IMG/VR virus record: IMGVR_UViG_2711768008_000020
Reading direction: 5' to 3' (one strand)
DNA length: 5,264 nt
DNA from: a virus
Lineage: Duplodnaviria; Heunggongvirae; Uroviricota; Caudoviricetes
Shown: one piece after another, positions 1 through 5,264 of the stretch
How the letters are laid out: every line of letters begins with the position of its first letter
How positions within the stretch are numbered: the stretch's first letter is position 1
The notes under the pieces: model-generated
What the model saw: only the letters and a program-made list of their open reading frames with translations
What the model was told of the DNA's origin: nothing
Databases searched by the model: none
Position numbers and translations under genes: made by a program

Positions 1-35
1 GAACAGGAGGGACAGCTGATAGAAACAGAAGCCAC
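1..35 (-). CDS. insA: IS1 InsA, N-terminal 11 codons only (partial, runs off window start)
   Basis: Minus-strand reading from GTG at 33-35 gives MASVSISCPSC, the InsA N-terminus as I recall it. GAGGTG Shine-Dalgarno (plus-strand cacctc at 41-46) sits 5 nt upstream. Confidence 0.7.
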   Translation of the reverse strand, partial: MASVSISCPSC

Positions 36-90
36 TGGAGCACCTCAAAAACACCATCATACACTAAATCAGTAAGTTGGCAGCATCACC
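1..90 (-). mobile_element. IS1: IS1 insertion sequence, left terminal portion (terminal inverted repeat at 68-90 plus 5' end of insA); element continues beyond window start
   Basis: Bases 1-90 are the reverse complement of the IS1 left end as I recall it (GGTGATGCTGCCAACTTACTGAT ... GAGGTGCTCCAGTGGCTTCTGTTTCTATCAGCTGTCCCTCCTGTTC). Element boundary is at 90/91. Identification is from memory of the IS1 sequence, not a database search. Confidence 0.8.
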
Positions 91-409
91 AGCCTTCTTG
101 AGGCTACCACCTGTTTTCAGGTGTCATTCAGACGTGATTTGCCCCAGATTGGGAAAGCACGCTTTTTTCTCAGCTATCGTCCTCTTATTTTGCCGTTACA
201 TTTCTTTTTGCATTCTAATGATTAATTTACAATAATAATATCGGTAATTATTGAGTAATAATAAATTAATTATTGCAAATGTAATTTAATTCCATCTTCG
301 CGTTATATTCCAATCTTTAATCTCCGCATGGAACAAGTTGCATGCGTGACTATATTAAGACGACTTATAACCACCAAAACATTTGCTTTGCAAGCAAAAA
401 CAGTGACCA

Positions 410-438
410 TTGACTCTAAGAAAATTCCGATCTATTGT
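410..438 (+). promoter_or_regulatory. Candidate sigma70-like promoter (TTGACT, 17-bp spacer, TATTGT)
   Basis: TTGACT at 410-415 and TATTGT at 433-438 with a 17-bp spacer. AT-rich DNA produces such hexamers by chance, so this is weak. Confidence 0.2.
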
Positions 439-722
439 TAGGGTCATCAAAGTTACTTAACAGTATTCCGAAATGAAAATACAAAGCAAGCTAATTGTCT
501 TATTAAACATTATTATTGCATTTATATTATTTGAGCTTTTAGCTCAAAAATTTGGTTTGAGTACATTATTTTAAAGCAAGATAAACAATATCGGGCACTC
601 TAGTTTTTATAATTAACAATTAAACGTCCATAAAATGTTATTTACTTTTCTTCGCTATTGTCATATCTTAATATAGTGGCTTACGCCACTCTACTTTCAT
701 CACATTTTGTACGTTTATGTAC

Positions 723-756
723 TCGCCATGAAGCTCTTTCATGGCGATTTTTTATT
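723..756 (+). terminator. Rho-independent terminator on the plus strand, convergent on the 3' end of tfa
   Basis: Perfect 10-bp stem (723-732 tcgccatgaa pairing with 738-747 ttcatggcga), 5-nt loop gctct, followed by TTTTTTATT (748-756). No comparable U-tract follows the hairpin on the minus strand. Confidence 0.55.
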
Positions 757-839
757 CTTAATCCAAGAACATACTCCCTACCTATAGCAAAATCACTTTT
801 TTAACAAAAGAATAACGTATTTAGGTAATCATTACGAAT

Positions 840-1421
840 TTACCCTATAGGTGCTACTGGCCATTCAATATCCGGTGCAGTTGATGTATCAACACGGTTC
901 AGCAACACCCGATACTTTTTCCAAGCTTCCAGCAACAAGGTTTCTTTCTCCGTTGCGATCTCCAGATCCACAGCATCCTGAAGCGGCGCTATATGCTCAC
1001 TGGCTACCTGCATCAGGCTGTTTTTTGTTTCTTCCGCCTCCCGGATCCGGAACAGTTTTTCTGCTTCCGTATCCTTCACCCAGGCTGTGCCGTTCCACTT
1101 CTGAAACTCCCCTTCCGGGGATAACCAGGTGACATTTTCCGGTAATGAGCCGAGTTCAGAAATAAATAACGCGTCGCCGGAAGCCACGTCATAAACCGTT
1201 TTACCCCGATGATCTTCAACGAGATGCCACGATGACTCATCACTGTTGAAAACAGCCACGAAACCAGCCGGAATATCTGGCGGTGCAATATCGGTACTGT
1301 TTGCAGGCAGACCTGTATGAGGCGGAATATATGCGTCACCTTCACCAATAAATTCATTAGTTCCGGCCAGCAGGTTATAAATTTTTATGGTCCGTGGTTG
1401 TTCACTCATTCTGAATGCCAT
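840..1421 (-). CDS. tfa: Tail fibre assembly protein (lambda Tfa / TfaE / TfaR family chaperone)
   Basis: 193-aa ORF starting [62 protein letters not shown], matching lambda-type Tfa as I recall it. ATG at 1419-1421 overlaps the stf stop by one base (TAATG). GAGG lies 8 nt upstream of the ATG. Stop TAA at 840-842. Confidence 0.92.
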
Positions 1422-4400
1422 TATGCAAGCCTCACAATATAGTTAAATGCGATGTTTTTGACGGTGTTTTCCGCGTTACCAGCAGCGTTAACGGTGATGG
1501 TGTGTCCATGTGAACCAATCGCAACAGAGTGCGTATGAGCACCAATACCGACAGTATGCGCGTGTGCACCCGCAGATGCTGCTGTGCCGGACAGTGAGTG
1601 TGTATGGTTTCCTTCTGNNNNNNNNNNNNNNNNNNNNNNNNNNNNNNNNNNNNNNNNNNNNNNNNNNNNNNNNNNNNNNNNNNNNNNNNNNNNNNNNNNN
1701 NNNNNNNNNNNNNNNNNNNNNNNNNNNNNNNNNNNNNNNNNNNNNNNNNNNNNNNNNNNNNNNNNNNNNNNNNNNNNNNNNNNNNNNNNNNNNNNNNNNN
1801 GCCACTGGTTAATGAGCCACTGATACCAACCTGATTAGTCCCGCTAACTTGAGTACTCCCTGCCGGAAACATTCCAGTAGGTTGACTCCCGCTATTCGTT
1901 CTGGGCCCAGTCTGACTATGTTGGTGGGCCCCAGCTGAACTTGTAGAGCCGCTCAGACTGTGCGTATGCGCCCCGGTGTTATTCGTGGATTTAGTGCCGT
2001 AATCAAACGACGATGTGGTTTTCGTCCCCAAATCCGTACTGGATGCGCTGGCGCTGTGGGTGTGCGATTTAATGCCATCCTGTTCCTGAGACAATACGGC
2101 ACGACCACTGGCGGGCTTGCCCTTAATCGTCCAGCCACGCATATCAGGGATCACGCCTGACGGATAAGCGGCTGCAAGTTTCGGGTAAGCAGATTTGTCA
2201 AAAGTCTGCCCCTGCATCAGGGCATAACCAGACGGAACGGTATCTGATGGCCACGGGATTGGTGCACCGACTGGATAAAACTCTGCAGGAGGATGAGCCG
2301 AGGTGTAAAGCTGCGCCCACGGCGACCAGTTTGCGTCGGTCGTATCCCGTCGTGAACGAATAAATGCCGGAGCATGAGCACCGCTTGTACCACTCCAGCC
2401 GATGAGTAACTCACCTTCGCCAACGGCTGTCATCCCTTTCAGGTGAATGATATTTCCATACGCTGTTGGATATCCGTTGTTATACACCTCGTATAACTCA
2501 AGACCTGCTGCCCCCTGCGTATTGTCTGTCAGCGCGGCTACCCGACCTTTTGAAGCCAGATTAACTGATGATACTGCTGTTCCACCTGACGGTAGCGCCC
2601 CGATCTCTGATGCCGTTGGCTTATTTCTGGAGTTATAGTCCCTTCGCCAGCCAGGTGAATAATCTGTTCCGTGATTAATATAGGTAAACTGGGCGTTGGT
2701 TGTTCCGCCACCGCTGGATGTGGTCGGAGTGGTAATGCGGATCGTCATCGCTGACTTTATCCCCATTACTTCAATGACAGCTCCGGCGAGATGAATATTA
2801 CCGCAGCCAGTATCAGTAATGATTTTATTATTGCCATAAGACCAGGAACCCTTGCACATCCAGTATGGATGGTTAAATGCTCCCTGAGAATCCAGCCACT
2901 CGATAAACTGTGCAGTCGTCCAGTTTCCTGTTGTTGTGCTTACTGACCCACCGAAGGCACGGCAGGCACCAATATTTTTCGTAAAGGTGTCTTTGCCAGG
3001 GATATCCGCACCGTTCTGATCTTTCTGCAGACGTTTCTCAGCATTGTCATTGGCTGCTTTTACTGCCTTTGGCGTTGCCGCCAGCGTTTCAGACGTGCTG
3101 TTGGTCGCGCTGCTTAGCTGGATTATCCCTTTCTGTGCTGTCGTTGCATCCTGTGCGGTGTATTTCCCGTTAGCCAGGTCATACGCGGCCTTAACGGCTT
3201 TTGGCGTTGCCGCCTGTGACTCGGAAGTGCTGTTAGTCGCACTGCTGAGCTGTACTATCCCCTTTTTCGTCGTGCTCGCATCCTCAAGCGCCACGGCGGA
3301 TGCAANTTTTGCCGCTGTCTCAGCGCGCGTTGCTGCAGATTCCGCCGTACTTTTGCTCTGAGCTGCCGCCGTCGCACTGCCAGCTGCCTCTGTCGCCTTC
3401 GTGGATGCCGTCGTGGCGCTGCCCTTCGCTGCTGACGCCTGTCTGGTCGCCTCATCTTTTGAAGCAGACGCCGATGATGCCGATGACGCCGCCGAACTGG
3501 CGGACGATGCGGCAGCCGTTTTTGAGGATTCTGCACGGGTTTCCGACGCTTTCGCGTTCGTTTCGGATGTCTTCGCTGCGGAAGCTGACCTCGCTGCTGC
3601 CGTGGCCTGCTCAGTGGCTTCGCCAGCCTTCGTTGTGGCTGTTGAAGCGGATGATGCGGCGCTTTCTGCCGATTTTCCGGCGGCGGTGGCACTGGCTGAG
3701 GCCTGCCCGGCACTTGTTGACGCGGCGCTGGCAGACGACGCAGCCGCTGTTTTTGAGCCTGCCGCAGCTGAGGCACTCTGTCCCGCTGCCGTTTCAGAAG
3801 ACCTGGCGTTCGTCTCGGACGTTTTGGCCGCCTTCGCAGAATTTGCAGCCGCCGTCGCCGAGGAAGCTGCGCTACTGGCGCTTGATGATGCGTTCGTTTC
3901 TGATGATTTTGCCGCCTCTTTTGAAGCCGACGCATCCCGGGCTGAGGTGGCAGCTTCTGACGCTTTCGTGGTCGCGGTGGATGCAGAAGTGGCTGCTGAT
4001 TGTTGTGACGCTGCCGCATTCGTTTCTAACGTTTTCGCCGCACCGGCACTGGTAGCCGCCGCGCTTTTTGAGGACTCTGCAGCGGCAGCACTTTTTGAGG
4101 CTTCAGTGGCCTTTGTTGATGCCGTTCCTGCGCTGGAAGACGCTGACTGAGCCGACGAAGCGGCCTGTCCGGCTGACGTGCTGGCTGCACGTGCTGAATC
4201 TGCAGCATCAGTCGCATGGGTTGCCGCCTCACGGGCTGATGTGCTGGCATCGCTGGCTGATTTCTTCGCGGCTGCCGTGTTCTGTGCCACCGCGGACGCG
4301 TTACGCGCCACCTCTTCCACCATCAGCTCAAAACGGCGCAGAGCCTCCGGACGGGCATCATCCTCCGTCATGGCACCGAGAAAATCATTCAGCGTACCGG

Positions 4401-4647
4401 GTCGGGAATCTTCATACACGGTGATGGTCCCGGCATGTGACGGCGGGAATCCCTCCACCAACAGAATAACGCTGTACTGCCCGTACTCAACGTCCATGCT
4501 GTAACGCCCGGCTTCATCCGGATTTTCTGAGGCCAGCGTGTTCACCACCACCGTGGTGCTGTTACGTTTTGCTTTCAGCTGGATTGTGCAGTTCTGTACC
4601 GGTTTTCCTGTGCCGTCTTTCAGTACACCTGAAATCTTTACTGCCAT
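1421..4647 (-). CDS. stf: Side tail fibre protein (lambda Stf / StfR-like), mosaic, interrupted by an assembly gap
   Basis: N-terminus [26 protein letters not shown] from ATG at 4645-4647 (the track's extra MN comes from an upstream GTG). It is followed by a long Ala/Ser/Thr-rich region, a duplicated KGI(V/I)[20 protein letters not shown] motif and a central domain. Downstream of the gap the correct frame reads ...[60 protein letters not shown] and stops at TAA 1421-1423. The track ORF ending at 1432 reads the last ~62 codons in the wrong frame because the 183-N gap is not the true length. Confidence 0.9.
1618..1800. other. Assembly/scaffold gap (183 N) inside the stf coding sequence
   Basis: Uninterrupted run of n from 1618 to 1800. 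Flanking coding frames differ by one base, so the real missing length is not 183. Confidence 0.97.
3052..3272. repeat. Direct tandem duplication (~132-bp period) inside stf encoding two copies of a tail-fibre repeat motif
   Basis: Core ttggcgttgccgcc occurs at 3069-3082 and 3201-3214 with similar flanks. The two copies translate on the minus strand to [27 protein letters not shown] and [27 protein letters not shown]. Confidence 0.7.
3300..4305. repeat. Low-complexity Ala/Ser/Thr-rich coding repeat region of stf (fibre shaft)
   Basis: About 330 codons dominated by A/S/T with recurring motifs ([27 protein letters not shown]). GCN-rich DNA on both strands generates three long shadow ORFs in other frames. 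Confidence 0.65.
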
Positions 4648-4711: not shown

Positions 4712-5264
4712 TCAGAATTTATAACCGACACCCACGATGAAACCGTCAGTGCGCCAGTCACCACTGCCGGAACCTTCATAAGCGACATCAATGGCCACGG
4801 ACTCGGTCGGGTTAAACTGCACGCCAGCCCCCCACGCCAGAGACGTGTTGCTGTGGCGACCGTCATCACTTCCGGTCAGCACATCGTGCGTTTTCCCCTT
4901 ATTGTCAGTTACGCGGATATAATCCCCGGAAAAAGTCGACACACGGCTGTAAGCCACACCCGCCATCGCATACGCGCTGAACCATTCATTCACGCGCACA
5001 GACGGCCCCGCCATCACGCTGAACCAGCGGTTACGCACGGAATCTTCATACCAGCGGGTATCGCTGTAACGGGTCAGCTGGCGATTCTTGTCTCCTGCAT
5101 AGCTGAACGACGTCACCATCCCCAGTGTGTCCGTAAACTCATAACGGTATTTCACGTTAATCCCGTTCAGATCATCACTGCCGGGAACGTTCGTCGAGGC
5201 ATGAAGATACCCCGCGCTCAGCGTGGACTGATGTTCAGACGCCCATGCAGGCGCACCGGATACG
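4712..5264 (-). CDS. lom: Lom/Ail/PagC-family outer-membrane beta-barrel protein, partial (N-terminus beyond window end)
   Basis: Reading frame is open from the window edge to TGA at 4712-4714. C-terminus ...DVAYEGSGSGDWRTDGFIVGVGYKF and internal GINVKYRYE, VMAGP, SAYAMAGVA motifs match lambda Lom as I recall it. The track's start at 5155 is an internal GTG. Confidence 0.85.
   Translation of the reverse strand, partial: VSGAPAWASEHQSTLSAGYLHASTNVPGSDDLNGINVKYRYEFTDTLGMVTSFSYAGDKNRQLTRYSDTRWYEDSVRNRWFSVMAGPSVRVNEWFSAYAMAGVAYSRVSTFSGDYIRVTDNKGKTHDVLTGSDDGRHSNTSLAWGAGVQFNPTESVAIDVAYEGSGSGDWRTDGFIVGVGYKF

Follow-up and report, generated by a model that had tools for sequence, protein, structure and literature searches.

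IS1 of E. coli K-12 and Shigella is a 768-bp element with imperfect terminal inverted repeats and with insA and insB' joined by a programmed frameshift, and it normally generates target duplications of 8-9 bp (PMC12428005; the features of the element are compared here with this source). Both adjacent deletion and recombination between IS copies are known to leave an IS without such a duplication (PMC11708052). The b region of phage lambda is the non-essential DNA that lies between the tail fibre genes and attP. For IS1 the classic case of adjacent deletion is said to be the gal-region deletions of Reif and Saedler (1975).

The DNA analysed here (the window) is a stretch of 5,264 nucleotides from a Caudoviricetes record (IMGVR_UViG_2711768008_000020). 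It opens inside a copy of IS1 and reads through a spacer into the tail fibre genes of a prophage. Its features are:

1-90, minus strand: IS1 left (IRL/insA) end, a 90/90 match to an IS1A-type copy; the element runs off the left edge
35-33, minus strand: GTG start codon of insA, by the transposase CDS annotation of strain 104 (L001; window-equivalent 35)
about 68-90: terminal inverted repeat of IS1 (the imperfect repeats are displayed for the full copy)
91-99, no strand: AGCCTTCTT, the IRL-side flank; a different 9-mer stands at the other IS1 end in relatives
91-175, no strand: conserved 85-bp segment, a 94-100% match in many other E. coli prophages among the rows sampled
91-839, no strand: b-region spacer from IS1 to tfa, with no gene annotated in RefSeq prophages
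840-1421, minus strand: tfa, tail fibre assembly gene, 193 aa, an ORF; the L001 annotation at this position is 'tail fiber assembly protein'
1421-4647, minus strand: stf, side tail fibre gene, by its ORF and the L001 annotation; interrupted by an N run at 1618-1800
4712-5264, minus strand: Lom/Ail-family outer-membrane protein gene, its 5' end cut by the window edge

The IS1 end and its junctions

Window 1-90 aligns without a mismatch to the last 90 bases of the 768-bp IS1 copy of E. coli strain 104 (L001 11323-12090), which is annotated as 'IS1-like element IS1A family transposase, programmed frameshift'. Read on the minus strand, these 90 bases run GGTGATGCTGCCAACTTACTGATTTAGTG...CTGTCCCTCCTGTTC; the element terminates ...GGCAGCATCACC at window 90, the reverse complement of the IS1 terminus GGTGATGCTGCC, and the IRL terminus GGTGATGCTGCCAACTTACTGAT is the reverse complement of window 68-90, as befits an end of IS1. 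IS1 ends with window 90, and from 91 the flank reads AGCCTTCTT. The first 11-12 codons of insA lie in the window, the remainder past its left edge, which is a repeat-induced contig end. By this alignment, window 1-90 is assigned to the IRL end of a full-length IS1A-type element. (The 768-bp length, the imperfect terminal repeats and the insA-insB' programmed frameshift are found in relatives that share the junction; the window shows the first 90 bp only.) The initial annotation, which had placed IS1 here in minus orientation with its boundary at 90/91 and about 750 bp downstream of the tail-fibre assembly gene, is borne out in each of these respects: measured from the tfa stop codon (840-842), the distance is 749 bp.

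The junction of IS1 (IRL) with AGCCTTCTT is present in 79 of 5426 complete E. coli genomes (120-bp query, window 31-150, approximately 100% identity, E = 2e-55), and the junction at the other, IRR, end in 102 (short junction-spanning query). Since 79 complete genomes match the 120-bp query at approximately 100%, the junction is neither a chance match nor an assembly chimera. These counts come from short spanning queries; with longer queries IS1-free relatives also pass 80% coverage, so that the 275 and 273 genomes counted at that coverage are unusable as IS1-junction counts. By subtraction, the tfa-side flank occurs without IS1 in roughly 190 further genomes and the AraC-side flank without IS1 in roughly 540. 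The arrangement as such is found in about 80-100 complete genomes, with poultry, pigs and humans as sources, and window 91-840 is 99.5% identical to the closest complete genomes.

If IS1 had simply inserted, the 9 bp at 91-99 would be its target-site duplication, as had been suggested, and would recur at the other IS1 end. The window starts inside the IS1 of a scaffolded draft and the far junction lies outside it, so the comparison is made in relatives. In strain 104 the far end reads ...TTACAGCCAATAAG/GGTAATGACTC, where the slash marks the junction (flank L001 11314-11322). The 9-mer GCCAATAAG, which is unrelated to AGCCTTCTT, flanks the other end of IS1 in L001, L005, L011 and L012, and CCACCCAATT does so in L006; the pair GCCAATAAG and AGCCTTCTT stands on the two sides in L001, in L012 and, with one junction base missing, in L005. 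In all five of the junction-bearing relatives read, then, the far-end flank differs and there is no 8-9-bp direct repeat. The proposed check for the same 8-9 bp at the other IS1 end turns up a different 9-mer and tells against the duplication, and the absence of a target-site duplication in the relatives implies that this is not a simple IS1 insertion. The genome from which the window derives could have a far junction of the strain 104 type or one of a further-deleted type.

The prophage locus and the segment missing from it

The locus reads, in the closest complete genomes, from bioA and ybhB through a lambda-like attR, two old IS fragments and an AraC-family regulator to IS1; beyond IS1 come the 749-bp AT-rich spacer, then tfa, stf, lom and J, and after them the other tail genes. 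The attR core TTAGTATAAAAAAG, followed by a P-arm-like sequence, adjoins ybhB at about 9350-9520 of L001; both resemble lambda attP. The lambdoid order J-lom-stf-tfa-b region-attR-ybhB/bio is thus complete in relatives (the window ends before attR), and by its gene order the locus is identified as a lambdoid prophage at att-lambda, adjoining ybhB-bioA. In IS1-free phages of this type the order is tfa, a 750-bp AT-rich spacer, a serU relic, the AraC gene, the IS fragments, attP and int.

The IS1-free relatives are the prophage of E. coli IAI1 (L003) and the phages mEp332 (L007) and ev099 (L009). The spacer is collinear with these IS1-free prophages and phages at 98.5-99.5% identity, and exactly 550 bp lie between the two flanks. 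In IAI1 the 550 bp occupy 9424-9973, between a left flank whose last base is 9423 and a right flank whose first is 9974, and contain no IS1. In mEp332, whose record gives MG1655 as host, they are L007 1951-2500, 98.5% identical to the IAI1 segment; in ev099, likewise recorded from a laboratory E. coli host, the same module adjoins the integrase gene. Comparison with IS1-free relatives, as had been advised, accordingly finds the 550 bp present where IS1 sits (in IAI1 and mEp332). An intact IS takes the place of DNA that IS-free relatives retain, with the breakpoint exactly at the IS end. Moreover, IS1 must have replaced DNA that was once present, because insertion into an ancestor that never had the 550 bp would still give a duplication.

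The IAI1 and mEp332 records have no annotated gene within the 550 bp, which consist of four parts:

part 1: 100 bp upstream of the AraC-regulator module
part 2: 278 bp, captured yodB-serU host spacer
part 3: last 62 nt of serU tRNA-Ser
part 4: 110 bp, phage att arm

Positions 101-440 of the segment match the chromosome of practically all E. coli at approximately 97% identity; the serU assignment comes from BLAST matches to chromosomes in which a tRNA-Ser is annotated between yodB and mtfA. The b region of att-lambda phages and prophages harbours 340 bp of E. coli DNA (278 bp + 62 nt; L003 9524-9863, L007 2051-2390) that looks like the fossil of an imprecise excision from serU. Judged by these matches, an ancestor integrated at serU left a relic of its attR in the b region, along with captured host DNA. 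The homologous end of the prophage in strain KS-NP019 (L002) terminates precisely at this serU tRNA fragment. With serU represented by a 62-nt 3' fragment alone, ARAGORN calls no tRNA in L001-L003, nor in the window. On the deleted segment Rfam returns only a sub-threshold match, to a plastid motif resembling the antisense strand of a tRNA-Ser. The conserved segment at window 91-175 is separated by 110 bp from the relic serU core that the IS1-free relatives have kept, and in L002 and L003 it leads on into the 3' fragment of serU, which makes it a probable phage arm of a serU-type att site.

Across the IS1 target site of ev099, RefSeq has a hypothetical ORF of 55 aa (L009 2968-3135, which corresponds to window 58-225 without IS1). 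It is not annotated in the prophages and is probably spurious; if real, it would be disrupted by IS1.

The initial annotation supposed that IS1 had truncated or replaced the region that normally follows tfa. Adjacent DNA has indeed been removed, but only 550 bp of it, with no annotated gene; beyond IS1, the relatives that share the junction still have the remainder of the b region, with its AraC-family regulator, IS fragments and attR. Loss of a pin invertase or of a large b-region block, the more specific form of that proposal, is ruled out by reading the IS1-free phages of this type, which carry no pin after tfa. The preference of IS1 for AT-rich targets, also invoked, applies loosely: G+C is 46% in the 100 bp at the junction and 29% over 200-840, the AT-rich stretch starting approximately 100 bp further in.

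The AraC-family module and the DNA downstream of it occur at a second chromosomal locus in strain B-JRPT-4119 (L004 5333-6100, near paoABCD). This second locus adjoins a Mu/e14-like tail module and has an independent IS1 in the start of the AraC-family gene.

The spacer contains a 33-aa hydrophobic ORF at 473-574 on the plus strand (MKIQSKLIVLLNIIIAFILFELLAQKFGLSTLF) that is unannotated in relatives; its likeness to the small membrane protein YncL is weak and sub-threshold (E = 1.3e-5, 25 bits against a cutoff of 35). Hairpins lie at 530-548 and 723-747; the latter is terminator-like, with a T run, approximately 150 bp downstream of the stop codon of the 33-aa ORF.

Among complete genomes the best match of tfa is 97.8%, and NCBIfam has no family for Tfa. 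Together with the stf 3' end, tfa (window 840-1617) is approximately 97.5% identical to the closest complete genomes, as against 99.5% for the spacer (91-840), which suggests, on sequence divergence, mosaic exchange in the tail fibre module. A match to the Rfam candidate small RNA IS009 (window 880-1078, minus strand; 218 bits against a gathering score of 117) lies wholly inside tfa. The assembly is a scaffolded draft, with a run of 183 Ns in stf (1618-1800) and one isolated N at 3306. Because the stf frame differs on the two sides of the N run, the length of the gap is arbitrary; the true C-terminal frame of stf is recovered.

Nested deletions and the origin of the junctions

In further strains one junction of IS1 is constant and the other varies (compare L006, L010 and L011 with L001 and L012):

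L006 (Res13 strains), 5294-6060: IRL/AGCCTTCTT kept; a further 191 bp lost on the IRR side
L010 (IAL7252), about 5424-6191: GCCAATAAG/IRR kept; window 91-208 lost on the IRL side (118 bp, towards tfa)
L011 (Z1323CEC0008), 5424-6191: GCCAATAAG/IRR kept; IRL abuts the inside of the prophage ompC/nmpC-like porin gene

The 191-bp loss in L006 ends 15 bp before the AraC-family start codon; in L011 tfa and the lysis genes are gone. IS1 is full length in these loci (767-768 bp), and four 768-bp copies are identical to the strain 104 copy at 763-768 of 768 positions. Together, these related strains document cleanly, from nature, how deletions next to IS1 have worn away a prophage step by step, in one of them out to a distant porin gene; they are useful as illustration rather than as new biology.

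An intact IS with breakpoints at its ends, no duplication and stepwise extension is the recognised signature of adjacent deletion, and it is likely that IS1 insertion was followed here by such a deletion, giving an intact IS1 in place of the 550 bp. IS1 would first have inserted into the b region of an att-lambda prophage. One end of the element would then have attacked a site close by on the same molecule (intramolecular replicative transposition), with loss of the intervening DNA and of one of the two target-duplication copies. The outcome would be what the relatives have: an intact IS1 replacing exactly 550 bp, with unrelated 9-mers on its two sides.

The simple-insertion precursor of this scheme would have AGCCTTCTT, or else GCCAATAAG, on both sides of IS1 and would retain the 550 bp. 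Of its two possible junctions, AATATTCCAAGCCTTCTTGGTAATGACTC would indicate original insertion at AGCCTTCTT with deletion leftwards from IRR, and GCAGCATCACCGCCAATAAGTAAGACAC the opposite. Chimeric queries for the two forms find no such precursor in the 5426 complete E. coli genomes. (The single full-coverage match, in B-JRPT-4119, is to a separate IS1, the one in the AraC-family gene at the second chromosomal locus, and was rejected.) Since neither form of the precursor is found, the order of the two steps and the side of the original target site are inferred.

An intact IS1 with unrelated flanks would also be the outcome if GCCAATAAG and AGCCTTCTT had each independently received an IS1 copy, the two in direct orientation, and homologous recombination between them had deleted one IS1 along with the 550 bp. 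Recombination of this kind is a common cause of missing duplications (PMC11708052), and the neighbourhood has been targeted repeatedly, as the separate IS1 in the AraC-family gene of B-JRPT-4119 attests. On the other hand, it requires two insertions of the same orientation 550 bp apart, neither of which is found singly in the 5426 genomes, and each of the three one-sided variants would require another insertion and another recombination. Because each variant needs that extra insertion, recombination is less parsimonious than adjacent deletion, and it appears unlikely to be the origin of these junctions.

Less likely by some way is a single step, in which the ends of an incoming IS1 join targets 550 bp apart and so accomplish insertion and deletion at once, without duplication. 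It would be in keeping with the failure to find a precursor among the 5426 complete genomes, and one-step insertion-deletion without duplication has been proposed for other IS families (PMC11708052). However, all IS-associated deletions in long-term evolution lines proved to be insertion followed by adjacent deletion (PMC11708052), and no feature of the present locus requires one step. A simple IS1 insertion with a 9-bp duplication, or an assembly artefact joining an IS1 read to prophage DNA, might be suspected of a window that begins inside IS1 in a draft with an N run (repeats often end contigs), but has next to nothing to recommend it when 79 complete genomes have exactly this junction and the different far-end flank in all five relatives read refutes the simple insertion for them.

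Insertion followed by adjacent deletion, the preferred reading, leaves IS1 206 bp upstream of the AraC-family gene, with insAB transcribed towards that gene and the DNA formerly upstream of it removed. It is a long shot that the arrival of IS1 and the loss of the 550 bp were other than neutral, through altered expression of this phage-borne regulator, or that they were a true one-step insertion-deletion. If that were so, altered regulator expression might explain the presence of the arrangement in about 80-100 genomes. No effect on the tail fibre genes is expected.

Relation to known systems

The element does not differ from the IS1 of E. coli K-12 and Shigella (IS1A/IS1E consensus type): the terminal sequence, the imperfect terminal inverted repeats and insA/insB with its programmed frameshift are the same, and the 768-bp length is matched in relatives; the window includes just 90 bp of it.

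With the IS-mediated adjacent deletions described in PMC11708052, the locus shares an intact IS, the absence of a duplication, and deletions that proceed stepwise from the exact IS end. The cases differ in that the series is reconstructed here from natural isolates rather than followed over time, and in that no precursor was found.

The region also occupies the position of the lambda b region, extending from tfa to a lambda-like P arm/attR beside ybhB-bio, and in ev099 the position matches next to int. Both regions tolerate insertions and deletions. In contrast, the gene content is unrelated to that of lambda's own b region: here a regulator of the AraC family is accompanied by IS fragments and by a serU att relic that includes captured host DNA. 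IS1 with an adjacent deletion in dispensable prophage DNA is an ordinary and already known phenomenon; what it amounts to is a prophage b region trimmed by IS1 with the tail fibre module untouched, which matters little beyond annotation.
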